The notes below the pieces were generated by a model. It saw only the letters and a program-made list of their open reading frames with translations, was not told where the DNA came from and did not search any database. The position numbers and the translations under genes were made by a program. Source: a virus. From it: a stretch of 64,000 nucleotides of DNA. Below are positions 411 to 12,559 of the stretch, piece by piece (position 1 is the stretch's first letter; each line of letters opens with the position of its first letter). The stretch lies in IMG/VR virus record IMGVR_UViG_3300040960_001746. One strand, 5' to 3'.

Positions 411-797
411 TTAATTATCACTCAATAAATCTTGTGATTGTAATTTAAACATTTCTTCTGTTATCTCATCAGGATTTAACCAACCAATAACATCAATATT
501 ACCATAACCATCATCATAACCCAATTCAAAGGTTTTAACACCATCACCATAAAGTCCATTGGCACCACCAACAACTGATGCGAATTGTCCATTATCAAAT
601 TTTAAAAACGCGTGTACACCTTCACCCAACCTATGAGGTTTAAATCTTAAATCTTCAAATGTTTTTAAATCTTCAGGATAAACCTTTTTTATGAAATCAA
701 AATCATGATCCATCAATAAAAGGTTATTAAACTTTTCATAATTAGGTTTATCTTTAAATTCTTCTTTTATTTTTGATATGTACTTATCTAACTCCAT
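411..797 (-). CDS. Hypothetical phage protein
   Basis: 128-aa ORF directly downstream of a Bacteroidota-type promoter. Confidence 0.75.
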   Translation of the reverse strand: MELDKYISKIKEEFKDKPNYEKFNNLLLMDHDFDFIKKVYPEDLKTFEDLRFKPHRLGEGVHAFLKFDNGQFASVVGGANGLYGDGVKTFELGYDDGYGNIDVIGWLNPDEITEEMFKLQSQDLLSDN

Positions 798-813
798 ATT
801 ATTTTAATATAGA

Positions 814-845
814 CAAATATAGAAATTTTTTTTTAATAAAACAAA
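814..845 (-). promoter_or_regulatory. Bacteroidota sigma70-type promoter (TTTG-N20-TATATTTG)
   Basis: + strand caaatata 814-821 and caaa 842-845; matches the -33 TTTG / -7 TAnnTTTG consensus. Confidence 0.7.
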
Positions 846-850
846 TAAAT

Positions 851-1063
851 TTAAATAAAACCGTTTTCTTTTAGTTCATGGTTAGACGGATACCCAATTT
901 GTTTTTCACAAACAAGACAAATTTTAACAACCCTTTTGTCTTTTTCTTTAAAAATTAGTTTATGTTCTTTGTGATCACAAGATGACTGTATCTCTTCGAT
1001 ATCTTCCTTTAAGGACTTAATTTTCATTTTTATATCTTCAACCTTTTTATCATTATTTTCCAA
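851..1063 (-). CDS. Small coiled-coil and Zn-ribbon-like protein
   Basis: N-terminal heptads, then CDH...CLVC. Confidence 0.6.
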   Translation of the reverse strand: MENNDKKVEDIKMKIKSLKEDIEEIQSSCDHKEHKLIFKEKDKRVVKICLVCEKQIGYPSNHELKENGFI

Positions 1064-1163
1064 AATATTGTTTTTAATGACTACTTAGTTTACTAAAAAT
1101 GAAACAAATACTAACTAAGCATTTATTGTTTCGTATATAATAAATATCTAACTTTTAATAAAA

Positions 1164-2078
1164 CTACTGATTTCTCTCTTTGTAGAGTCTCATCATTCTA
1201 TCTCTAGCATATTCACAATAGTCTTCCACTAAGTCAATTCCGATGTATTGTCTTCCCATTTTAGAAGATGCGTATGGTGTAGTACCTGTACCTGAGAAGT
1301 TATCTAAAACAATATCATTCGGTTCTGAATAAAGATCGATAAAGTATTTCGCAAACTCTGAAGAGAATGTCGCCTCATGTCCTTCAACCTTACCATCATT
1401 ATTTCTCGCCTCAATGAAATTATAGTATGTTCTAAAGTATCTTTGTCCTGTTTTAGATATTGATGAAACAGTTTTATTGGCTTTAAAATCAGGGTTCTTT
1501 GCAAATATATAAACCATTTCAACAATTCTAGTCATTCTGTTTGGATGTCCGCTCAATGGTACACAAGATTTCTTCTTCCAAGATGCAGTATCATATATTT
1601 GTAAACCAGTGTTCTCAAATACCTCATTAATTAATATATAAGGTAATGATGGGTTAAATGTCGTATAACTATAATTAAATACAATAACACCATCATCAGA
1701 TAATATTCTTTCGTATTCTTTAAATACATCTACCAACCAACTTAGATATTCTTTAACTGGTTGGTTATCTTTAATAATATCTTTCGCACCAGGATATTTG
1801 TGATTGTCTTTTCTTAATGATGCAAGATATGGTGGAGATGTTAAAATAAGATTAATCGATTTATCATTAATCTTTTTCATTGTCTCAACAGTATCCCCAC
1901 AATATATTTCATTTGTAATTAATCCTACGTCTGTGGGATTTGTCTCATCAAAAATTTCCTCTAAATCATCGAATACGTCATCTTCAAATAAAACTTCTTC
2001 TGTTGATCCAGTTGTAAATTCTTCGACATCAAACAATAAAATTTGACTGTCTATTTTTCTTTTCGGTCTTTTTGCCAT
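1164..2078 (-). CDS. DNA methyltransferase, beta class (N4-cytosine or N6-adenine)
   Basis: Catalytic TSPPY precedes SAM-binding VLDNFSGTGTT and YIGID; SPPY favours m4C; basic then acidic N-terminal extension. Confidence 0.9.
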   Translation of the reverse strand: MAKRPKRKIDSQILLFDVEEFTTGSTEEVLFEDDVFDDLEEIFDETNPTDVGLITNEIYCGDTVETMKKINDKSINLILTSPPYLASLRKDNHKYPGAKDIIKDNQPVKEYLSWLVDVFKEYERILSDDGVIVFNYSYTTFNPSLPYILINEVFENTGLQIYDTASWKKKSCVPLSGHPNRMTRIVEMVYIFAKNPDFKANKTVSSISKTGQRYFRTYYNFIEARNNDGKVEGHEATFSSEFAKYFIDLYSEPNDIVLDNFSGTGTTPYASSKMGRQYIGIDLVEDYCEYARDRMMRLYKERNQ

Positions 2079-2080
2079 AA

Positions 2081-2989
2081 TTATAAAAATGAATGTTTAA
2101 ACATATCTAATTGTTCTCCGTATACAGGTAATACATTAGGATTTTCACCATAATTCATTATAAGTAATTCTTCACCCATATTTTGTTTTTTACCACTTCT
2201 AGCTGCGGCAGCTTTTGCAAATTCTTTCATCTCCCAAACATATTCGTGTTTAGGAAACCATTCTTTTAACAAAGGAAAGTCATAATAACTTAATGAAAAC
2301 TTACCTTTCATATTTTTTAATGACTCCGCTAGTCTTTCATGATCGTTTCTATCGAAGTCGTGATTAGAATAATAGTTTTCTGTTTTCCAATAAGGTGGAT
2401 CCACATAAAAGTATGTAGTTTCAGAATCATATTTCTCAATCACTTCTTGAAAATCCATATTTTCGACAAAAGTAATTTTATCAAAATGTTTTCTATATTC
2501 TGGATTCTTTAACTTATCCATAAAGATAAGAACTTTACATCTGTATTTCCCTTTGTAATCCATATATGAAGATGTCTCTGGTTTTGATCCTGAGAAAATC
2601 TGAGTCAAAACATAAACATACTTTGCGGCAATCTCATATTTATTTTCTTGTGTAATAGTAACCCCACTATGAAATACCTGTTGTTGGTATTCGTTAAACA
2701 TATCTTCATACTCTGATGGTGTATCTGTAACACCTAATTGTTGACAAGGGTATTTAGATAGTTCATCCCATAACCTATCATAATCATTACAACAATCAAA
2801 TAGGTTTGCATTCAAACCATTAAAATCATTATATACTACAGTCTTAAGATTCGGATACTTACTTAAATCCATTTTAAAGAATACCCAAAACATACCACCA
2901 AATGTTTCTACATAAGTTTCAATGTCTCTAGGGATAAATGGTACAATCCATTTAGATATTCTCGCTTTACCACCAATATAACTTATCAT
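2081..2989 (-). CDS. Dam-like (D12 class) DNA adenine methyltransferase
   Basis: YIGGK, YVETFGG (motif I), VYND, FYVDPPY (motif IV), EELLIMNY. Confidence 0.9.
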   Translation of the reverse strand: MISYIGGKARISKWIVPFIPRDIETYVETFGGMFWVFFKMDLSKYPNLKTVVYNDFNGLNANLFDCCNDYDRLWDELSKYPCQQLGVTDTPSEYEDMFNEYQQQVFHSGVTITQENKYEIAAKYVYVLTQIFSGSKPETSSYMDYKGKYRCKVLIFMDKLKNPEYRKHFDKITFVENMDFQEVIEKYDSETTYFYVDPPYWKTENYYSNHDFDRNDHERLAESLKNMKGKFSLSYYDFPLLKEWFPKHEYVWEMKEFAKAAAARSGKKQNMGEELLIMNYGENPNVLPVYGEQLDMFKHSFL

Positions 2990-3007
2990 CTGTTCTTTTT
3001 AATAAAG

Positions 3008-3658
3008 TTAATACGTAATACCCAATTTGTCAAGTATTGTTTTGACAAATATAAGTATTTTATTTTTAATAGTCAATTTTTGTTTTAACCTAAACACAAT
3101 TGTTAACCTATGATAGTTTTCAAATATAGGTGCGTATTCACCTTTATTGATAACCCACTTAAATTCTAATTCAGAATAAGGGATAAAACCGTCTCTAGTA
3201 TATAAACCACTATTTGATTTATAAATATTTTCTAATATAATTTTATTATATTTTTTCCACCATTTAGTTTTAGTCATTCTATATATAAAATCATTATACT
3301 CATTACAATCTTTAAAGTTATCATAATATGGATTGCCTTCACCCCATTTACTTCTACAAGGGGAAACTTTAATTATAGGTTCTGAGTAAAGTCTAAATTT
3401 GTTAAGATCTCGTTTATAGTATTTTTTAATCTCGTAAAGAACACCATTAACATCTTTTGCGTCCGCCTTAACAAATTTAGACTCTTCAATGATTGGTTTA
3501 AATAGTTCGGGATCTTTATTTAAGGACATTAATCTCTCAACATTATTTCTACCAACACCACTCCATTTAATTCTAGGTGCTTTAATATAACGCTCAAAGT
3601 TTTCTTTCTCCCTAACTTCTCTTTCAAAAGAGTAACCTGAAATTGCACGTATCTGCAT
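3008..3658 (-). CDS. Putative PD-(D/E)XK nuclease
   Basis: GYSFEREV helix...KADAKD...YEIKKY gives an E/D/ExK arrangement; adjacent to two MTases. Confidence 0.45.
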   Translation of the reverse strand: MQIRAISGYSFEREVREKENFERYIKAPRIKWSGVGRNNVERLMSLNKDPELFKPIIEESKFVKADAKDVNGVLYEIKKYYKRDLNKFRLYSEPIIKVSPCRSKWGEGNPYYDNFKDCNEYNDFIYRMTKTKWWKKYNKIILENIYKSNSGLYTRDGFIPYSELEFKWVINKGEYAPIFENYHRLTIVFRLKQKLTIKNKILIFVKTILDKLGITY

Positions 3659-3683
3659 AACTACGTAGTGTGTAACTACTTTA

Positions 3684-3878
3684 TTATTGGTTTATTGATA
3701 GTGCCTGTGCTCTCATTTGTGTTTTAATACCCTCCACTTTACTAAGGAGGAATTCCATATCTTCTTCAGATAATTCTTTTGTTTCGGACCATTTCATACC
3801 CAAAACACTCATAAGTTCCCAACACTTATCTTGTTCTGTTAAGTTGGGATCTGTTGCAGTTTTATTAATTTGACTCAT
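3684..3878 (-). CDS. Hypothetical protein
   Basis: 64-aa ORF in operon. Confidence 0.6.
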   Translation of the reverse strand: MSQINKTATDPNLTEQDKCWELMSVLGMKWSETKELSEEDMEFLLSKVEGIKTQMRAQALSINQ

Positions 3879-3901
3879 AACTTTCTATTTTATTTAATCT
3901 A

Positions 3902-4327
3902 TTATTTTTTTGCGTCTTCTTCGATTTTCTTTTGTTCTAACAATGTTACCATACTTTCTTTAATTGAAAGGTAGGTATCAATATCATAATGTCTCAATAC
4001 ACCACTGAAAGTTGTAATGTCGTGTGACACAATACTAATCTTATCTTTGTCAATGTCATATACAATCTGAGCCAACAAATCTTTAACAACATATTCTTTT
4101 TGGTTATCTTCTAACTGATCGAAAATAGGTTCGTTAACTTGAATTACAATATCGTAATCAGTCATAAATTTAACGATGTCACTTGTTTTAGATACCTTCC
4201 CAAACTCTTTCTTAATACCCTCATTAGAAAGGATTTTAAATTTTACCAATCTAGGTATTTGTGATTGTTCAATGTGTTTTTGGAATAACTCCAATGTGTC
4301 TTCATAGACTTCTTCAAACTTTGCCAT
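3902..4327 (-). CDS. Phage metallopeptidase-like protein, probably inactive
   Basis: YDIVIQVNE..FDQL...Q...V and HDITTFSGVLRHY match the family, but the HELxH position reads KDLLAQ. Confidence 0.55.
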   Translation of the reverse strand: MAKFEEVYEDTLELFQKHIEQSQIPRLVKFKILSNEGIKKEFGKVSKTSDIVKFMTDYDIVIQVNEPIFDQLEDNQKEYVVKDLLAQIVYDIDKDKISIVSHDITTFSGVLRHYDIDTYLSIKESMVTLLEQKKIEEDAKK

Positions 4328-4461
4328 TTTTTAACTTTTTGTTTAATAATAACCACTTCCTTATTAAAGATGGGTAAGATAGTGGTACGAATTTACTATT
4401 TGGTTTTGTTTTTCCCATCTTTTTTAATTTTGTTTAAGTATAAAGATTATATTTTAAAAAA

Positions 4462-5481
4462 TCAAACAGATAGTGAATTAATTTTTTCTTCATCTTCTTT
4501 TGAGACTTCTTTAGGTATATCTAACCATACTTCTAATAACATATCACCAGTCTCATTCCCTCTAACAAATCCTTTTGTTGGTATTCTTAACATTGTACCT
4601 ACATCGGTACCTTTTTTGATTTTAAATTTTATCTTACCATCCATTGTGTCTATTTGTACATTATCGTTACCCAACACAAGATCCTTATATGTTAACTTTA
4701 TTGTTTGGTGTATGTCGTTACCTACTCTTCTAAACTTTTCGTGTGGTATCTCAACAAAATTAATAATCAAGTCTCCATCGATACCATTCTTAATCGCATT
4801 ACCCATTGCATTAACACGCAACATCTCTCCCTCCATCAAACCTCTAGGAATGTCAAATTCATATTCCACCTCCCCTAATTTAACACCATTACCACCACAA
4901 CTATTACAAGGTTTAATCAACATCTCACCAGAACCTTGACAGTTAGAACACATTACAGTGTTTTGAATCCTACCAAAAGGAGTATTCTGTACCTGATTAA
5001 CTACACCTTGTCCATTACAAGATGTACATTTAGATGTTTCACCACCTGTATTATTACAATCAGAACATTTGTTATTTTTACGATACTTTATTTTTTTATG
5101 TACACCGTTAAATAAATCTTCTAGAGATACTTTAATGTTAATTCTTATATCGTTACCCTTCCTTCTTCTATTTTGTTTTTGTCTCCCCCCAAATGGATTC
5201 CCACCACCAAAGAAAGAAGAAAATATATCATCCATATCCATACCACCAAATGGATTACCCCTACCATCTGCACTACCAAACCTATCGTAGTTACTTCTTT
5301 TTTCTGGATCAGACAGAACAGAATATGCTTCAGCAATATCCTTAAACTTTTCTTCCGCTTCTTTATTATTCGGATTTAAGTCTGGGTGATATTGTTTAGA
5401 TAATTTCCTGTAAGATTTTTTAATTTCAGATTCATTCGCATCTTTATTAACACCTAATATACTATAGTAATCTTTACTCAT
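4462..5481 (-). CDS. dnaJ: Chaperone DnaJ (class A)
   Basis: J domain with HPD, G/F-rich linker, four CxxCxGxG-type repeats, C-terminal substrate-binding domain. Confidence 0.95.
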
Positions 5482-5541
5482 CTTTGTTTGCCTTAATATT
5501 TATTTATTAGTAATAATAAGTATTTTTATTAAAAAAATAAA

Positions 5542-6195
5542 GTGATGCGTTATAAAATTATAATAACCAAAGACGGTAAAAAGAAAAAAGTCCTTTATGA
5601 AGGGCCCAATGAAAACATCGCAAAAGAAAAATATTATAATACAAAGGATAACAATAAAGTGTTATTCCCCAAAGAAAATAACGCATACAAAAAAGTAAAA
5701 CCTGTTAATTATGAAATAATGTTTCTTAAAGAAAAGGAAGATAGTGACACACCTTTTTATGTTAGGGATGAATTAGGTAGAACAAAACCTGTGGATATTA
5801 ATAGTGATCAATGGAGTTTAGTACATAAAGATGATTACTACTATGAAGAGAAGTTTACTGTGTTTGGATACGACAAAAGATTAGAAACTAAAGAAATAAT
5901 AAAATATATCTTATTAAGAAAGAATAAAGTAGATAAGATAAAACAAGTTAATTATGTAATTAATAAGGTTTTAATATATCAGAATGGTGACTTTGATATT
6001 ATAGTTTGTAAAAATAACTCTGACGCCAAAAGATTATATAAAACTTTAAAGGAATTTTCTGAAACTAATAAAGTGAATAATATAATGTTTACTGGTTTGG
6101 TTGGTAAAAGAAATAGAACTAAACTTTATAAAAGAATTGTAGAAAAAACAGGATGGACAATTAACAAAACTTATCGATCGTCCACCCGTCCTTAA
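5542..6195 (+). CDS. Hypothetical basic protein
   Basis: 217-aa Lys-rich ORF preceded by ATATTTAT at 5496-5503. Confidence 0.75.
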   Translation: MMRYKIIITKDGKKKKVLYEGPNENIAKEKYYNTKDNNKVLFPKENNAYKKVKPVNYEIMFLKEKEDSDTPFYVRDELGRTKPVDINSDQWSLVHKDDYYYEEKFTVFGYDKRLETKEIIKYILLRKNKVDKIKQVNYVINKVLIYQNGDFDIIVCKNNSDAKRLYKTLKEFSETNKVNNIMFTGLVGKRNRTKLYKRIVEKTGWTINKTYRSSTRP

Positions 6196-6197
6196 CC

Positions 6198-6674
6198 TTA
6201 TTCCTCTACACCAACTTGAAACTTATTAGTTAAGTCTTCAATAAGATCATTAAGTTTATCAAACTCATTTTGATCTTCAATGTAAACAGGATTCACACAC
6301 ACAATCTTTTCTTGTTCTTCAGTAGGTAAAAAGAATAACCTAACATCATCTCCCCTATTTTCCAAATATTGTTTTACATTCTCACCATAGGTTGCAATCA
6401 TTTCTCTATTAGTGAATAAATCTTTTTGTAAATAAAATACTAAAATAAGTGGTGAGTATGTTCTATTTTGAACTCTGAACTTTTCTAATGAAACAAAATT
6501 TATATTATCGGTATTAATATCATGTGTTTCACTTAATTCATTTTCTTTATTTAGTCTTTCTTCTTCACCAAACACTTCAAAACATTCTAAAGCGTTCCCA
6601 TTATCATCCATAAGATATACCAAATATCCTCTTACTCCTTTTTCTAATGAATGATTTTTAGTAACTATTTTCAT
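6198..6674 (-). CDS. Hypothetical protein
   Basis: 158-aa ORF convergent with the previous gene. Confidence 0.75.
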   Translation of the reverse strand: MKIVTKNHSLEKGVRGYLVYLMDDNGNALECFEVFGEEERLNKENELSETHDINTDNINFVSLEKFRVQNRTYSPLILVFYLQKDLFTNREMIATYGENVKQYLENRGDDVRLFFLPTEEQEKIVCVNPVYIEDQNEFDKLNDLIEDLTNKFQVGVEE

Positions 6675-6745
6675 AATTTATATTTATCCTTTTATTATTA
6701 ATATAATATTACCGAAAATTTTTGACATAGTAAACAGTTTAAAAT

Positions 6746-6780
6746 AAAAAAGGGAAAGTATTTTATTACTCTCCCTTTTT
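6746..6780 (-). terminator. Intrinsic terminator closing the vWA/ncRNA unit
   Basis: aaaaaaggga-a-agta-ttttat-tact-c-tcccttttt hairpin with A/T tails. Confidence 0.75.
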
Positions 6781-6789
6781 CAATTTTTT

Positions 6790-7089
6790 GGTGTCGGAAT
6801 GGTGATTCGACTTTTATTTAACGTGATGATCGTCCCCACGGTAGATTTTTAACTCAGCCCCACTGAGTGTCTTATTTTTACTTGTGACAAATCCAAGAGG
6901 GGTGTTTTACAACCTAAAGGATGGGACTATCCCATTTTAAACCTCACCTATGGTTGCCCCCTTTATAACTTTTGGGTAAAGGGAGAATAAAACCTCTGAC
7001 CTACATTCTAGTTTTTGAGAAAAGTTTGCAGAAACCATTCGTTTGTCGGATCTTAAAGGGGTATCGTTCTACCCCAAATCCAGTACACC
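6790..7089 (-). ncRNA. Candidate structured ncRNA A (~300 nt), putative partner of the Ro-like protein
   Basis: No credible ORF; 41% GC by hand count (6791-7090). Long-range pairs ggtgt 6790-94/acacc 7085-89 and gaatggt 6797-6803/accattc 7034-40. Internal hairpins actcag/ctgagt, atggga/tcccat, cccttta/taaaggg, ggggta/tacccc. Confidence 0.65.
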
Positions 7090-7096
7090 TTAATAC

Positions 7097-7260
7097 TTTG
7101 TGATATCGGAATCGTTTAGTCACTTTCCCTAACTCTGAGTGGTCCCCCGACTAATCGGTTTACACCCTTGTGGTTAGGTGGGTTAACCAAGCCCTTCTCC
7201 ATTTGTAGCTTGAATTTAAAGTTAAAAAATTTGCTGCAATTATTCCTTAACTATCACAAA
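7097..7260 (-). ncRNA. Candidate structured ncRNA B (~164 nt)
   Basis: 9-bp closing stem tttgtgata 7097-7105/tatcacaaa 7252-60; inner ggaat/attcc; hairpins ccga/tcgg and tggtta/taacca; shares terminal motifs with RNA A. Confidence 0.6.
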
Positions 7261-7280
7261 ATATCTTTTCAAAGAACGTT

Positions 7281-8699
7281 CTATACAGTTACTACACTGT
7301 ATCTTTCGTCATTCACAGTATCCATCAATATGGATTCTGGTGTCATATCCTTTCCACCCAAAATGGACTTCAGAATAGACGGACTAAAACCTGATACCAA
7401 TGCCGTACCATTTTTGTCAAACTCCACTGGGAAATTACCCCCTTTGGCGTTTAGGTTCCAATAAATGATATCTGGTTTAGTGTATCCCATTTCTTCGTAC
7501 ATCGCCTCAATCATAGACTGTGCAGAGAATTCATCTCTTCTTGTCGCTTGATTGAACTGCATATCCGATAAAATTAGGATCTTAGTCGGCATATTATCTT
7601 CAGGTACGTTGTTAATTTTCGCCTGATTCAAAATAAGGTTAAACACCGCCTCTAAATCAGTAGACATTCCCCAATCCGCTCTTCTTAACTGATATAATCT
7701 ATCTCTTAGAGATCCAGTTAAGTATTGTAACTGAGGGTTGTTTGAGAAAGTGATGAATGCATCTTTAAAGTTACCTTCATTTCTCTCCGAAATATAAATA
7801 CCCAAAGATATTGCCACATCCATACAAGATAGGTTAGGGTTTCCACCTACTTCAACACCCATAGATCCTGACACATCTACTACAGGTAGGATTCTTTCAA
7901 CAGAACCTTCCATCCAATTCGGTAGGGATTCCCATTGTTTGTTGTTCACAATGTCATCTCCCCCTTGATTCATAGACTTAATTATGTCATATGGGTATAC
8001 TGCCCCAGCGTTAACCTTCGCAGTTCCATCCAGTAAGGATTGTTTATACTCGTTGTATCTTTCTTTATCGTTTCTATTAAACGTCTTCTGATATCTAGAT
8101 GACGCAAGAGATGGTAGTTTTGAATAATCAATTGACTCCCAATCTCCCGCACACATCTTAGATTCCACAACGTCAGTTAGATCTACCAACATCTTTCTGT
8201 ATTGTTTAGGTGTGGTTCTAAACATTTTACGTAGTTTGTTGGCTACGACACCTTTTCTCGGCATCCACTTTGCACATAATCCGTCACCGTTTGATAATGC
8301 GGTTTTAATAAGTGAGAACATATCGTCCTCTAACTCTGTACCAAGTAGACCTAAAACATCGTCCCATCTTCCAAACTCTGGAATAAGTCCAATGTTCTTT
8401 CTAACCGTTTGTGGAGAATTAGTGGTTAGGTATGAGATAACATCTCTGAACACTTTGCGTTCACCTGCACCACCTCTAACATCTCTAACCCAAAATAGGA
8501 TTTTCGATGCAACTAATGGATTTTCATTGTACGCCTCACTGAAGAGTTTTACAACTTTATCCTTTGACTTACCTCTCATTGACCCAATGGAGAAAAACAA
8601 ATCTACACACTTATTAAGTGAAGTAGGATTTGTAACCATCCCGTTATCTGTTAAAGTAACATTCTGATTTTCCACCATATTAGTTTGAGAGTTGTTCAT
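7281..8699 (-). CDS. DUF2828-type Ro60/TROVE-related helical protein with C-terminal vWA domain
   Basis: TDNG, RDVRGGAGER, GRWDD, CAKWMPR, vWA MIDAS DVSGS, SDMQF, YWNL, VSGFSP. Confidence 0.85.
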   Translation of the reverse strand: MNNSQTNMVENQNVTLTDNGMVTNPTSLNKCVDLFFSIGSMRGKSKDKVVKLFSEAYNENPLVASKILFWVRDVRGGAGERKVFRDVISYLTTNSPQTVRKNIGLIPEFGRWDDVLGLLGTELEDDMFSLIKTALSNGDGLCAKWMPRKGVVANKLRKMFRTTPKQYRKMLVDLTDVVESKMCAGDWESIDYSKLPSLASSRYQKTFNRNDKERYNEYKQSLLDGTAKVNAGAVYPYDIIKSMNQGGDDIVNNKQWESLPNWMEGSVERILPVVDVSGSMGVEVGGNPNLSCMDVAISLGIYISERNEGNFKDAFITFSNNPQLQYLTGSLRDRLYQLRRADWGMSTDLEAVFNLILNQAKINNVPEDNMPTKILILSDMQFNQATRRDEFSAQSMIEAMYEEMGYTKPDIIYWNLNAKGGNFPVEFDKNGTALVSGFSPSILKSILGGKDMTPESILMDTVNDERYSVVTV

Positions 8700-8736
8700 A
8701 ATATATTTTTTAAGTCGTTTTTAATGTTTGTGAGTA

Positions 8737-8768
8737 CAAATATAGTAACTAATTATTGAAAAGTCAAA
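8737..8768 (-). promoter_or_regulatory. Bacteroidota sigma70-type promoter for the vWA/ncRNA unit
   Basis: caaatata 8737-44 and caaa 8765-68, 20-nt spacer. Confidence 0.7.
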
Positions 8769-8798
8769 TTTTTTTTAATTTTTTTTTAATTTTTTTAG

Positions 8799-8807
8799 AT
8801 ATTTATA
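8799..8807 (+). promoter_or_regulatory. Recurrent phage motif ATATTTATA (putative late promoter)
   Basis: Same sense-strand motif precedes about 15 genes in the window. Confidence 0.5.
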
Positions 8808-8813
8808 TTTTAT

Positions 8814-9230
8814 ATGGTATTAAGAGACATAATTAAAAAGAATTTATTATTAGAAAAGCGGATTGCACAAATATCTGCCAAAGCAGAAATTGTATTCGGT
8901 TTTGACGTTATTAAAACTAAACACACCACAGAAAGAATGAAAGTTTCGTCCAGAAATTTAACCAATAACAGAACAAATGATATGAGTAATAGTGAACTTT
9001 CAGAATTTGTTAAATTATTCACTAGAGAAATTGCGGAGGGTATTGTAAGTGATGAGGTTAATGATGGGGAACCTTTTATAATAAAAAGTAGATCTTGGGG
9101 TATTAGTATGGTTATTCTTCCTGATAATGTAAGTGGTAGTTATTGGAAATTAATTATCAAAACTGTTTTTCCTGAATCAATTCACAACTCACTTAGGGTT
9201 GGGAGATATCAAATTGTTTATGAAAAATAA
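8814..9230 (+). CDS. Hypothetical protein with leader motif (MVLRDIIKKNLLLE)
   Basis: 138-aa ORF; an H...R..R...IIKTV pattern is weakly reminiscent of RelE/BECR-like folds. Confidence 0.65.
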   Translation: MVLRDIIKKNLLLEKRIAQISAKAEIVFGFDVIKTKHTTERMKVSSRNLTNNRTNDMSNSELSEFVKLFTREIAEGIVSDEVNDGEPFIIKSRSWGISMVILPDNVSGSYWKLIIKTVFPESIHNSLRVGRYQIVYEK

Positions 9231-9304
9231 AAAGAGGGGTTTGTATCTAAATCGTTACCCACCCCCTTTAAAATGACTTGTATCTAAATCGTTGCCCATC
9301 ACTT
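9229..9304 (-). ncRNA. Candidate twin-hairpin small RNA with two near-identical 20-nt loops
   Basis: AAGUGAU-[GGGCAACGAUUUAGAUACAA]-GUCAUUU-U-AAAGGGGGU-[GGGUAACGAUUUAGAUACAA]-ACCCCUCUUUUU; own promoter upstream; G-U pairs work only on the minus strand. Confidence 0.6.
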
Positions 9305-9310
9305 ATAATA

Positions 9311-9342
9311 CAAATATACAACAAATAATTTAAACTACCAAA
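9311..9342 (-). promoter_or_regulatory. Bacteroidota sigma70-type promoter driving the twin-loop RNA
   Basis: caaatata 9311-18 and caaa 9339-42, 20-nt spacer; no sizeable ORF downstream. Confidence 0.65.
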
Positions 9343-9358
9343 TAAAATTTAATTTTTT

Positions 9359-9988
9359 TTAGTTATCGAACCAAAAAACTATTCTAACATCCTCAGGATC
9401 ACCGAGTTCTAATAATGAATTTACAACATCTCTAAAGAAATAAGTTCCAACACCTATGGTGTGTAACTCCTCATCTGACATTTTATGGTAATTACTATCT
9501 AACAATTCTTTAACTGTGAAATAATTATGTGAATGCCCATCAATACCCCAATCATCACTTAATCTACATATTGTATCGGATACATCATCAGGTAACCCTT
9601 TAACCCACCCAGATATTAAATCCATATTTGAGTTTCTAACACCCGCAAGTGCACCAAATAAATCATAATTTCTTCCCGTATACGGTTGATCAGTATATGG
9701 TGAAGGGAATTTAGAACTATCTGACCACCAAGGAAAATTAGGGTCATCAGTAATACTTTTTTCTATATGATTATATATATAACTTTCCCATTTGTTTTTG
9801 GGTTTAACTCCTTTAAAATAATTTAATATGATAGTATCAGATTCATCTTTAGTTAAACCGAACTGATTTGTGACTATTCCTTTTATATGTTTTAACGTAA
9901 GATGATTAATAAATACATCACCTAGTTTCTCCCATCTACCAGTGTTAGGATTTTTTTTCTCTACAAACATATGAACATCGCATCCGAT
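9359..9988 (-). CDS. Conserved phage protein of the MGCDIH...FWFDN type; probable non-canonical ATC start (track start 9970)
   Basis: In-frame ATC-GGA-TGC-GAT-GTT-CAT precedes the ATG; RNYDLFGALAGVRN, GLPDDVS, DGHSH, VRIVFWFDN. Confidence 0.7.
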   Translation of the reverse strand: MGCDVHMFVEKKNPNTGRWEKLGDVFINHLTLKHIKGIVTNQFGLTKDESDTIILNYFKGVKPKNKWESYIYNHIEKSITDDPNFPWWSDSSKFPSPYTDQPYTGRNYDLFGALAGVRNSNMDLISGWVKGLPDDVSDTICRLSDDWGIDGHSHNYFTVKELLDSNYHKMSDEELHTIGVGTYFFRDVVNSLLELGDPEDVRIVFWFDN

Positions 9989-9990
9989 AA

Positions 9991-10650
9991 CTACTTCCCT
10001 CCTTTCTTTTTATAATAATTTATTAAATCAATATATTTTTCATGTTTTCTTTCTAAAAATATTGTAGAGTCTTTATACATCCATTCTAAAATACTTAGTA
10101 TTGATTTATTACCTTTTTTACTAATTCTATGAATTGATTTCATTTCATAAACTTTTAAGTTTACATCAACATACTTACTAATTAAATATCTTACACCCTC
10201 AATTAAATCATAATTACCTACTATTGAATAATTATACCTTCTATAATTAGGGCTATTTTTTGCCATTGTATAATTTAAACTACCATCCCCATCATATAAA
10301 CCCCTTATAAAGTGTCTATACATATCATTTTTTAAAACAGGTAATTTCACCTTTTTACTCTTATTAGGTACTACACCGTACCTATTTAAATTTTCAACAA
10401 TTTTCACAACAGAACAATCAAACATATAAATATTGCCATAACCTAAATCTCTACTTTGTATAGGCTTATCTTTATTAGGGTAAATTAGATGTGACAATTT
10501 TTCTAAATGATTATTATCCTTAATATCTACTCTAAGTCTTTTATTTTTATAATTATGTCCGTCTGCCATAATAAATCCAAGCCAATATGCCTCTTCTTCT
10601 GTTTTTATATCAGAAAAGACTTTATCATTATATAAATATTTTTTTTTCAC
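9991..10650 (-). CDS. Free-standing two-motif LAGLIDADG homing endonuclease
   Basis: AYWLGFIMADG and HFIRGLYDGDG motifs, C-terminal LERKH. Confidence 0.85.
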   Translation of the reverse strand: MKKKYLYNDKVFSDIKTEEEAYWLGFIMADGHNYKNKRLRVDIKDNNHLEKLSHLIYPNKDKPIQSRDLGYGNIYMFDCSVVKIVENLNRYGVVPNKSKKVKLPVLKNDMYRHFIRGLYDGDGSLNYTMAKNSPNYRRYNYSIVGNYDLIEGVRYLISKYVDVNLKVYEMKSIHRISKKGNKSILSILEWMYKDSTIFLERKHEKYIDLINYYKKKGGK

Positions 10651-10690
10651 TTATACAATTGTTTTTTTTTATAAATATAAATATTTTATT

Positions 10691-12559
10691 TTAAAATACA
10701 AATTTTCCAGTATCAAAAAAGTTTTCTATTATATTATCTAATTTACTTTTTGTTTCGTAAATTCGTTTTTCTTTAGTTGGTATGTTTGGTTTTTTCTTAA
10801 GTGGGTATAGTATACCATCATCACCTATTTTATAAAAATTCCCCCAATTACTTTTATTAATGTGATACCTAACTGCGATTCTTAATTGTTTTTCTGGGTT
10901 AGAGCGCCCAACATTAGATAAATAAAATTCTATATTTTTGTCTTTGTTAGGTATGTAAATATTATTAGATATTATTATACCTTCTAAATCATTTTTAATT
11001 TTCTCTTTGATGTCGTCTTCCCATTTATTCTTTAAATGGTTATAGACTTTACCAATAACATCATTATACCTTTTTAAATATATAGGGTTATTTCTTATTC
11101 CATACTCTGTTTTTTTAACTGGTGAAGCTAAAAATTCCGATAAGTAACTATCTTGTTTATTTATATCTTTTACTTCTACTTTACCATCTTTAGGTATTAT
11201 CACATTACCACCTTCATCTTTTATATCTCTATTTGCTAATATATCATATTTAGTAATACCGCTGATTTCTAAATAATTTTCAATATTTTTAATTATAAAT
11301 TTAGAAATTTCATCTACATCAAAATCATCTGATTTTATTTTTTCAGGAAAACTAAACCCTACTTTATCTAAATCATGTATTCTGGATTCAACACTCTTAG
11401 ACTCTTTTTTAAACCCTTTGTTTAAGAAACTATTTTCATACGTTTTACCAAAAAAGTCCATAACCTTTTCTATATCAGAACTAGATAATTTACAATTGTC
11501 GTTGAATATATAACAATATTCTTTTTCTTTTATTTTATTAAAATATATTTTTAGACTTTTCATATATTTTTGGACTTTACTTAAACCTTCCTTAATTACT
11601 TCATCAGGAATTTTATTTTTAGTTATAATTTCATTAATACCTTTAGAGTATTTCACAAATGTTTCCCAGTTAGACCTCTTCCCCTTTCTAATATTACCAC
11701 CAATATAATCTAAGTAAAACTTTACTTTTAAGTTTTCTTTAAATTCACCAATTAGGTTATCGATAATTTCTTTCTTTTGGGGAATCGCCTCATTTTTACT
11801 TTTACTATTACGTTTTAAATTAAATTTTTTTAATAAATCATCTAGCGATAAAGTAATTTCACTAAGGTTAGTTTTAGTTAAGTAATCTACTAGTTTAATA
11901 AAGTTATCACCTACCTCCTCCTGTGTTTTTGGTGGCCTCAAATTCTTTTGACCAACAACTCTTTGTCTATCTTTTTTTGTTTTTAACCAAAGTGAAATAT
12001 CTTTTTCATCCATATCAAAGTAACGCATTAATATTTCTCTTTGAGTTAAACCACCTTCTTTTTTTGGTTTTGCAATTGATGTCAATTCACGAAACCCTTT
12101 AATGTTTTTGTAATTAGTCCCTAATACAGTATTCACTTTAGCCAAAAATTCCTCAAACTTTTCTTTTGTGAAAACATCGCTATTACCTCTATTTGCTTCT
12201 TTAGAAACTATATACCTCACAACATAACCATTAATACTTGATGAATTTATCTGAGACGGATTATTATTAAAAGGTGGATTTAATAAAACATTTTTAATTT
12301 TTTCATCATTTGTTAACGACTCATATTCATTTACAATATAATCTATTTCTTTTTGTGATATATTTTCACTATCACCATCTAACTCAAAATCTAATTGGGT
12401 GTTGCTTATTTCGTCTCCATCAATTTCTATTTCTTCTTCTGATTCTACACCAAAATCTTCATTATCAACATCAAATTCAATCTCCTCCGATAACTTTAAT
12501 CTACCAGTGTCATAAAACTCCTCAACAATTCTATTTAATATGTCATCATATTTATTCAT
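10691..12559 (-). CDS. Large hypothetical protein with a repeated terminal motif; possible C-terminal PD-(D/E)XK domain
   Basis: N-terminal LNRIVEEFYDTG and C-terminal LDNIIENFFDTG; YDI...KVEVKD. Confidence 0.65.
   Translation of the reverse strand: MNKYDDILNRIVEEFYDTGRLKLSEEIEFDVDNEDFGVESEEEIEIDGDEISNTQLDFELDGDSENISQKEIDYIVNEYESLTNDEKIKNVLLNPPFNNNPSQINSSSINGYVVRYIVSKEANRGNSDVFTKEKFEEFLAKVNTVLGTNYKNIKGFRELTSIAKPKKEGGLTQREILMRYFDMDEKDISLWLKTKKDRQRVVGQKNLRPPKTQEEVGDNFIKLVDYLTKTNLSEITLSLDDLLKKFNLKRNSKSKNEAIPQKKEIIDNLIGEFKENLKVKFYLDYIGGNIRKGKRSNWETFVKYSKGINEIITKNKIPDEVIKEGLSKVQKYMKSLKIYFNKIKEKEYCYIFNDNCKLSSSDIEKVMDFFGKTYENSFLNKGFKKESKSVESRIHDLDKVGFSFPEKIKSDDFDVDEISKFIIKNIENYLEISGITKYDILANRDIKDEGGNVIIPKDGKVEVKDINKQDSYLSEFLASPVKKTEYGIRNNPIYLKRYNDVIGKVYNHLKNKWEDDIKEKIKNDLEGIIISNNIYIPNKDKNIEFYLSNVGRSNPEKQLRIAVRYHINKSNWGNFYKIGDDGILYPLKKKPNIPTKEKRIYETKSKLDNIIENFFDTGKFVF

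Follow-up and report, generated by a model that had tools for sequence, protein, structure and literature searches.

Toxin–antitoxin (TA) systems of type III (ToxIN, CptIN, TenpIN and AvcID) combine a protein with a non-coding RNA that carries a repeated element in variable copy number, in a phage-related context. The RNA lies upstream of the toxin within one operon and is co-oriented with it, and in ToxI it is the whole unit of ~36 nt that is repeated and that differs between loci. RegB of phage T4 (PF10715) is a nuclease that resembles RelE and YoeB and has an additional first helix, its catalytic residues being His48 and His68; a possible anti-RegB partner has been explicitly raised in a T4 review (PMC3014915). 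RegB targets a single-stranded site of 11 nt with GGA at its start (PMC1702504). Here we analyse an element within 64,000 nt of viral DNA (IMG/VR record IMGVR_UViG_3300040960_001746; this whole stretch is the window) that is compared with both. It is a small RNA presenting the same loop sequence on two hairpins, which converges on an open reading frame (ORF) encoding 138 aa, termed ORF138. The RNA is one of a large family in aquatic Bacteroidota phages that appears not to have been described. Its role most likely involves the adjacent protein, with its predicted RelE/RegB fold, rather than CRISPR, ToxIN or an antisense target in the host, by a mechanism that we infer below.

The element is located in a 128-bp spacer flanked by the convergent ORFs 8814–9230 (+) and 9359–9970 (−). 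The features of the locus are:

9339–9342, minus strand: promoter −33 element TTTG, of the Bacteroidota primary-sigma type, 20 nt upstream of the −7 box (read from the sequence)
9311–9318, minus strand: promoter −7 element TATATTTG, consensus TAnnTTTG (read from the sequence)
9226–9304, minus strand: predicted small RNA of ~78 nt (about 76–80), two hairpins and a U-tract, its ends placed from the fold and the promoter spacing
9273–9302, minus strand: hairpin 1, stem GUGAU/GUCAU (9302–9298 with 9277–9273), loop GGGCAACGAUUUAGAUACAA (9297–9278)
9230–9270, minus strand: hairpin 2 (terminator stem), stem AAAGGGGGU / ACCCCUCUUU, loop GGGUAACGAUUUAGAUACAA (9260–9241)
9223–9233, minus strand: U-tract, intrinsic terminator, overlapping the stop codon (9228–9230) and last codons of the convergent gene 8814–9230
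8814–9230, plus strand: ORF138 (138 aa, P0001), the convergent partner, of an uncharacterised phage family with a predicted RelE/ParE/RegB-like fold

The repeat is the 20-mer TTGTATCTAAATCGTTRCCC, found on the plus strand at 9241–9260 and 9278–9297. The two copies are identical at 19 of 20 positions with a period of 37 nt, and the chance expectation for this 20-mer in the window is 0.01 matches with up to three mismatches allowed. Further copies in the phage, for which an earlier note on this DNA proposed to look, are not present in the window, where neither a search allowing three mismatches nor a looser scan gives a third match. The predicted RNA (9304–9224) folds on its own into two hairpins and no others, the repeats forming their loops, followed by UCUUUUUAUUUU (−18.3 kcal/mol, z = −2.0). 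The two stems bear no relation to each other, and that of hairpin 1 requires two G·U pairs, so that it is possible on the minus strand only. TTTG and TAnnTTTG are the −33 and −7 consensus of the Bacteroidota primary sigma factor, and the same arrangement of TTTG, spacer and −7 box is present in relatives, for example locus L002. The earlier note had described these elements from the letters alone, and its description holds in each part: unrelated stems with loops 19/20 identical at a 37-nt period (repeat scan and fold), a consensus host promoter (TTTG-20 nt-TATATTTG on the minus strand), a second hairpin that ends in a U-tract (UCUUUUUAUUUU), and a length of ~76 nt, which fits the predicted 76–80 nt. 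On its sequence features the segment 9304–9226 (−) is a real phage small RNA of ~78 nt, predicted to be a stand-alone unit running from promoter to terminator.

The structure is general to a large family. Exact-pattern scans, with loop positions 3 and 11 left free, gave matches in 111 metagenome stretches and 108 viral contigs, comprising 167 distinct motif instances once duplicates were removed. In the RNA sense the loop consensus is GGNAACGAUUNAGAUACAA, invariant except at positions 3 and 11, where any base is found, and the loop is seen on differing stems in more than 200 viral and metagenome contigs. The stems that close the loop average 7.4 contiguous bp, compared with 4.4 bp once the flanks of different loci have been exchanged. 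An alignment (A2) of 26 double-hairpin relatives of the window RNA has both loops invariant, double (compensatory) changes in all 12 stem pairs and 98.1% of cells paired. None of 500 shuffles reaches the observed level of pairing, and slid partners give 67% at most. Compensatory changes occur in five of five pairs in the hairpin 1 stem (columns 7–11 with 32–36) and in seven of seven in that of hairpin 2 (columns 47–53 with 74–80); the last hairpin of these 26 relatives leads into a U-tract. Locus L038 is almost identical to that of the window, and L002 is a diverged homologue with compensatorily changed stems. Each unit displays the loop one to four times, with three or four displays in loci L191 and L126. 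Of 142 family hairpins, 96 have a TAnnTTTG box that ends 13–17 nt ahead of the loop, so that the hairpin starts at or beside the predicted start of transcription. Among 99 distinct stems G·U is found 66 times and A·C 15 times, an excess that indicates selection for structure in the RNA of GGNAAC...ACAA sense, i.e. on one strand. The proposal of the earlier note that the conserved loop is a recognition sequence displayed on divergent stems is strongly supported. The loop is kept in more than 200 contigs, on stems that covary.

Multiple hairpins that share a loop on arbitrary stems are also found in CsrB/RsmZ, in the ANTAR dual hexaloops and in the guanidine-II (mini-ykkC) RNA. The loops of these RNAs are 4–8 nt in length, compared with ~19 nt conserved here, their partners are different, and many members of the phage family have a single hairpin.

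The same data bear on an account of the element as a duplicated bidirectional terminator and nothing more, or as a protein site at the DNA level such as an operator. The location between convergent genes and the terminator-like second hairpin would suit such a function, and the same 19-mer occurs on the opposite strand of an unrelated Firmicutes promoter region, just past the −10 box, in an operator-like position. However, the loops of terminators do not stay conserved over 19 nt in hundreds of phages, the promoter is at a fixed distance, and the asymmetry between G·U and A·C together with the compensatory changes shows selection on RNA of one strand. The matches in Firmicutes and Prevotella are at chance level, multiplied by family size. 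We regard this account as very improbable; lack of loop conservation in relatives, which the earlier note named together with lack of a discrete transcript as what would reduce the element to a duplicated terminator, is the opposite of what is observed.

The matches outside phages are of several kinds. The scan of genome_contigs gave 68 matches, with true hairpins only in six contigs of Bacteroidota metagenome-assembled genomes (MAGs); most of the 68 are chance hits multiplied by conserved families, and GNDLDT coding repeats among them are a coding coincidence. In Prevotella and relatives (L221, L226, L240–L243 and others) the 19-mer is formed by the first codons of a conserved gene, ATG GCA ACG ATT AAG ATA CAA, encoding MATIKIQQTKSRIG, and was treated as coincidence; the gene is presumably rpmD, for ribosomal protein L30. 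The Firmicutes matches are in gut contigs (L220, L234, L236, L238, L258, L273, L285 and others), where the 19-mer lies on the opposite strand just past a TTGACA-17-TACAAT promoter. The site precedes a conserved membrane-protein gene, presumably YhgE/Pip-like, and is probably an operator and a chance match multiplied by the size of the family.

No described equivalent was found of the RNA family, of its linkage to a protein, or of its placement ahead of transfer RNA (tRNA) arrays or GOLLD RNA. A search of Rfam over window positions 8500–10000 gave no relevant match at E ≤ 10. Scans of 27 related loci at the Rfam gathering threshold gave only tRNA, transfer-messenger RNA (tmRNA), GOLLD and group I intron, and never the hairpin itself. 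The loop sequence was not found in the literature searched, and a keyword search likewise gave nothing relevant. Positions 8000–11000 have no blastn match in the phage collection. A search for close-relative loci with both flanking proteins found none, and the nearest record (G001) is without this region. The names of contigs and records point mostly to aquatic samples (freshwater, estuarine and marine). A Bacteroidota host is indicated by Por_Secre_tail domains in neighbouring genes, by the six hairpin-bearing Bacteroidota MAG contigs and by the promoter type.

The RNA is linked to the gene on which it converges in the window, a point that the earlier note had missed, as it had the family members located in islands of tRNA and GOLLD genes. 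Clustering of neighbouring ORFs places an ORF138 homologue in 49 of 142 loci found by the motif, always convergent on the RNA, with its stop codon 27–110 nt past the loop. The same pairing of RNA and protein is found in four of six homologues of 40–50% identity that were chosen by the protein alone. The standard two-loop RNA lies beside three of these (L291, L292 and L294/L295). At the fourth, L290, there are two hairpins, both with the same altered loop GGGCAACCUAUUAAGAUACAA. The remaining two, L293 and the megaphage record LR745206, lack the RNA. Among more distant homologues (L300–L306, with profile E-values of 1e-7 to 1e-19), L304 combines a convergent promoter with two hairpins that have another loop, GUCAGAAUAC, in common, followed by a U-tract. 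This joint change of both loops beside a divergent protein is the chief argument that the loop is read by the ORF138 protein or by something co-evolving with it, i.e. a phage-encoded partner.

The ORF138 family comprises 102 close relatives and, in a profile search, 141 representative clusters, all of them unnamed. The profile matches none of 401 sampled Bacteroidota genomes, and by sequence the family appears to be restricted to phages. Its invariant residues include E14, H37, R41, N59, W111, T117 and Q133. An AlphaFold model of ORF138 (pLDDT 78, and >86 in the C-terminal half) comprises an N-terminal helix and an antiparallel sheet, with helices at 2–19, 36–47 and 59–78 and strands at 29–34, 88–92, 97–107 and 110–120. 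Comparison of the model by VIA-align gives Z = 5.8 for RelE, 5.6 for the CdiA-CT toxin, 5.3 for the ribonuclease domain of colicin E5 and 4.1 for T4 RegB; ParE and BrnT are among the other PDB matches at Z of 4–5.8, and the best PDB matches in Foldseek are YoeB, HigB and RelE. ToxN is not among the structural matches listed, an absence that does not exclude a ToxN fold. The antiparallel sheet on two helices that defines the RelE/ParE superfamily is present in the model, with modest scores and as evidence at the level of the fold only. The best match in the viral structure library searched with Foldseek is a protein of a Tenacibaculum phage (E = 2e-6); a T4-like coliphage protein named ‘Site-specific RNA endonuclease’ ranks fourth (E = 1.4e-4), ahead of further proteins of T4-like phages. 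The name of this fourth match is presumably that used for RegB. The genome of the Tenacibaculum phage, PTm1, has neither the motif above control nor a match to the profile. In the Atlas the nearest named cluster is DUF4258 (score 0.81, to be taken as a lead only). From the model, ORF138 is predicted to be a RelE/RegB-fold protein and a putative nuclease.

The resemblance to RegB and to RelE, YoeB and HigB is that of a small basic phage protein with a predicted RelE-like core and an extra N-terminal helix. The only stretch aligned by hhalign sets H37 and R41 of ORF138, an H-x3-R motif, on H48 and R52 of RegB in an alignment that is not significant, with no clear counterpart of RegB H68. The RegB site starts with GGA and the loop of the phage RNA with GG. 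There is no significant sequence similarity between the proteins, and none of 43 family members matches PF10715 in Pfam at E ≤ 1. RegB differs also in targeting the Shine-Dalgarno sequence GGAG with help from ribosomal protein S1, and is not known to have an RNA partner.

The likeness to the type III TA systems lies in the composition of the locus (a protein and a non-coding RNA with a repeated element, here in one to four copies, in a phage) and, by analogy, in the proposed binding and restraint of a ribonuclease-like protein by the RNA. In contrast to ToxI, only the loop is repeated, it is conserved between loci, and the stems differ. The window RNA has no tandem whole-unit repeats lying upstream of the toxin in the same orientation with a terminator between them; it is convergent, with a promoter of its own. 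The proteins differ too, in that the fold predicted here is RelE/ParE/RegB-like, with ToxN not among the matches listed.

The reading that we prefer, tentatively and at somewhat less than an even chance, is that the RNA is a multivalent ligand or decoy for a ribonuclease-like ORF138 protein, acting in the manner of an antitoxin. The small RNA would present the single-stranded 19–20-nt sequence GGNAACGAUUNAGAUACAA twice, as loops on freely varying stems. The ORF138 protein may bind these loops, or take them as decoy substrates that are non-productive; it is a putative phage-specific endoribonuclease of RelE/RegB fold. By occupying it the RNA would titrate or restrain the protein, as an RNA antitoxin or ‘anti-RegB’ partner, if the regulation runs in that direction. 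The convergent layout, with the terminator over the stop codon, could add antisense or transcriptional coupling of the two genes. Single hairpin copies in other phages, before tRNA arrays or GOLLD or between tRNAs, may supply the same ligand in trans. The earlier note had proposed an early anti-defence decoy. The idea of a decoy survives; the likeliest partner is a phage protein and not a host defence.

A number of observations weigh against this reading. The concerted change of the loops is seen at two independent variant loci only (L290 and L304). There is no ORF138 within 4 kb in 93 of the 142 motif loci, and the 385-kb phage G002, 95% complete, has one hairpin and no ORF138 (two of its three pattern matches are coincidences in coding sequence). 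These orphan copies of the RNA are the main point that is left unexplained. Conversely an ORF138 homologue is found without the RNA in L293, L302 and LR745206; L302 has a plain terminator, L303 has an overlapping gene in that position, and the contig of L300 ends 45 nt after the stop codon. The fold matches are weak (Z < 6), hhalign of ORF138 with RegB returns a probability of 0.1%, which is not significant, and searches of Pfam, PHROG and PDB sequences gave no match for the ORF138 family, the distant members also being without a match in Pfam. The co-location of RNA and protein might stem from common residence in RNA-gene islands and not from a physical partnership.

Some of the distant homologues have other surroundings. 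At L301:1620–1748 and L305:1602–1790 (−) they face a different convergent RNA of ~135 nt with its own promoter and several hairpins (GGGUYGAACCGAGAYUACCC...), which may be a second RNA family partnered with the ORF138 protein family. In L306 (1–1800) the homologue is reversed within a tRNA array and flanked on either side by tRNAs of the opposite strand; a motif hairpin is absent. The homologue in a 635-kb uncultured megaphage (L296, LR745206.1:315277–316060) has a plain terminator only, and converges on an ORF that by eye resembles an S1 RNA-binding domain; T4 RegB is activated by ribosomal protein S1.

Parts of the window are present as assembled contigs in four RNA-library runs (8842–9135, 9138–9294 and 9037–9257, at a depth of 2–6). 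These metatranscriptome data are contigs only, in which neither strand nor RNA ends can be read, and the uncovered segments 8693–8816 and 9313–9500 carry no weight. The contigs 9138–9294 and 9037–9257 bridge from within ORF138 across the loops, their strand being unreadable and carry-over of DNA possible. Contigs across the 3′ end of ORF138 and the hairpins weakly support transcription there. The 5′ end of the neighbouring gene (8600–8690) reaches depths of 357 and 73 in two metatranscriptome assemblies, against 2–6 for ORF138. This gene, 7281–8699 (−), encodes a DUF2828/DUF7788 vWA protein, putatively Ro60-like.

Contigs that run from ORF138 across the loops would also be expected if the RNA were a cis-antisense regulator of type I kind, pairing with the 3′ end of the ORF138 mRNA, which would extend across both hairpins on the opposite strand, to control its stability, with possible interference from convergent transcription. 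The genes are convergent with the U-tract over the ORF138 stop codon, and complementary loops of 20 nt would probably make efficient kissing contacts; the contigs are, as noted, of undefined strand and could derive from DNA. In B. subtilis txpA/RatA and in E. faecalis par (RNA I/RNA II) a small RNA and an mRNA are likewise convergent and share a terminator region, and in par direct repeats are part of the layout. The toxin in these systems is a short hydrophobic peptide. Here there is no such peptide, and the 138-aa product is predicted to be a folded alpha/beta protein, although the 3′ overlap is itself plausible. Pairing in cis would place no constraint on the sequence of the loop and so does not account for its conservation across genomes, in more than 200 contigs while the stems drift. 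Moreover many copies have no ORF138 opposite, and there is no complementarity in trans to the 5′ region of the mRNA. We consider cis-antisense control a quite improbable function. Pairing in trans with the ORF138 mRNA was rejected on duplex energy, which is −10.05 compared with −9.9 for shuffled loops.

The preferred reading, with ORF138 as the partner, has also to be set against a decoy that acts in trans on some host factor with no relation to ORF138, such as a host ribonuclease or a tRNA-targeting defence nuclease, serving anti-defence. The loop is near-identical across very different phages, including genomes without ORF138, and this would fit a conserved target in the host. Expression from its own promoter, or embedding in a tRNA polycistron, would give an abundant and stable RNA, and the RNA is located among phage genes for tRNA, tmRNA and GOLLD. 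Phage islands of such genes are thought to counter host attacks on translation. Nevertheless a host target is not indicated by the genomes that were searched. Sites that resemble the loop or its complement, with up to three mismatches, are no more frequent in five Bacteroidota genomes than those of a reversed-pattern control. The suggestion in the earlier note of an antisense regulator of a host RNA is without support. Mimicry of helix 24 of 16S ribosomal RNA (rRNA), suggested by a by-eye likeness of the loop to the 790 loop (GCRAACAGGAUUAGAUACCC), was rejected since local alignment to a Pedobacter rRNA operon scores 16–18, no better than shuffled loops (17.9 ± 1.9). Two precedents offered in the earlier note, RNA anti-CRISPRs and the pseudo-ToxI repeats of phages, also fail. 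In an exact-match scan of one genome each for 185,579 species there is no array-like cluster of the 19-mer and no repeat context like that of a CRISPR or a type III antitoxin; the multi-copy matches are coding repeats only, and repetition of the loop alone is the reverse of the ToxI pattern. Finally a host factor would leave unexplained the tight convergent linkage to ORF138 and the concerted variation with it. A decoy of this kind is improbable, though less so than cis-antisense control.

Family members occur in four genomic contexts. In context A, to which the window belongs, a promoter is followed by a motif hairpin, sometimes by an unrelated middle hairpin, and then by a second motif hairpin and U-tract, the whole converging on a gene of ~138 aa. 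In context B the order is promoter, single hairpin, U-tract and second consensus promoter, and a tRNA array, where tRNA is found nearby, typically begins 265–370 nt further on. In context C, found in 11 loci, promoter, hairpin and A-tract precede a second promoter and a same-strand gene for GOLLD RNA; phage tmRNA and tRNAs are close by. In context D a promoterless hairpin lies between tRNA genes. A tRNA is present within 1 kb in 29 of 119 loci, on the RNA-sense strand in all 29. GOLLD (RF02032, 298–332 bits) follows a single hairpin and second promoter in L143, L186, L110, L205, L051, L155, L056, L095, L008, L197 and L176, of which one is given as an example:

L143:3056–3468, minus strand: GOLLD, directly downstream of a motif hairpin and second promoter

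Expression of the hairpins alone or embedded among tRNAs suggests a stable RNA product.

These contexts are where a different function could be sought, the hairpin being a cis element close to the promoter of operons for stable RNAs. Whether transcription stops at the U-tract or reads through into tRNA arrays, into GOLLD or, in the window, into antisense across ORF138 would then depend on a phage or host factor bound to the nascent loop, in the manner of nut/boxB, put or LoaP leaders or of the pR′-6S-tR′ attenuator. Lambda nut/boxB, HK022 put and LoaP share with the phage RNA a promoter-proximal hairpin that has a conserved loop and precedes long structured operons, which in the phages are tRNA arrays and GOLLD. 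The hairpin begins within a few nucleotides of the predicted start, and the same-strand placement of the 29 nearby tRNAs and of GOLLD in the 11 loci, the 265–370 nt spacing to the first tRNA in single-hairpin U-tract loci and the promoterless copies between tRNAs are all in its favour. In addition several relatives of the window have a tRNA-Glu on the RNA strand beyond the reversed ORF138. Yet the hairpin is normally separated from the genes downstream by another full consensus promoter, so that most downstream transcripts are without the element, which is a departure from nut, put and LoaP. The window copy faces the end of a convergent gene, and in L290 and L292 the hairpins are downstream of tRNAs, beside ORF138. 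One to four tandem copies fit a sponge better than a loading site, and concerted change of both loops with the neighbouring protein is not expected if a host factor reads the element. We judge the cis element to be an unlikely function, to about the same degree as the host-directed decoy.

A more extended form of the preferred reading, in which ORF138 is the partner, is possible but less likely than its core. In lytic T4-like and jumbo phages the RNA and protein would form a new kind of pair, where an RNA with one to four loops, each carrying the recognition sequence of a RegB/RelE-fold ribonuclease, keeps that enzyme in check. The orphan copies ahead of tRNA arrays and GOLLD would then give cross-immunity or protect the stable RNAs of the phage, and the RNA would be the ‘anti-RegB’ that has been speculated upon in the T4 literature. 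If the RNA does restrain or direct the ORF138 protein, the logic of RNA antitoxins would extend to the RelE fold, with a testable ‘anti-RegB’ partner. The loop variants of L290 and L304 are ready-made material for swapping specificity. With this analysis a phage RNA family that is widespread and covaries very cleanly is defined, and is tied to an uncharacterised and apparently phage-specific protein family with a predicted fold of RelE/RegB type. It also provides a new way into the islands of stable RNAs (tRNA arrays, tmRNA and GOLLD) that large phages carry and that are poorly understood.

Further features were observed around the RNA. In the window the ORF 9991–10650 (−), two genes upstream of the RNA, resembles a homing endonuclease (LAGLIDADG_3, E = 1.2e-7). 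It was considered as a possible reader of a 20-bp asymmetric site, but at other loci the motif is found without it. A phage tmRNA gene is also present in several of the GOLLD loci, and there is a group I intron in L051. One subfamily of the motif adjoins a T4-type major capsid gene. Finally, a 14-kb locus that opens with a single motif hairpin (L020) carries ~35 tRNA genes on one strand at 760–9154, including a weak tRNA-Sec-like match.

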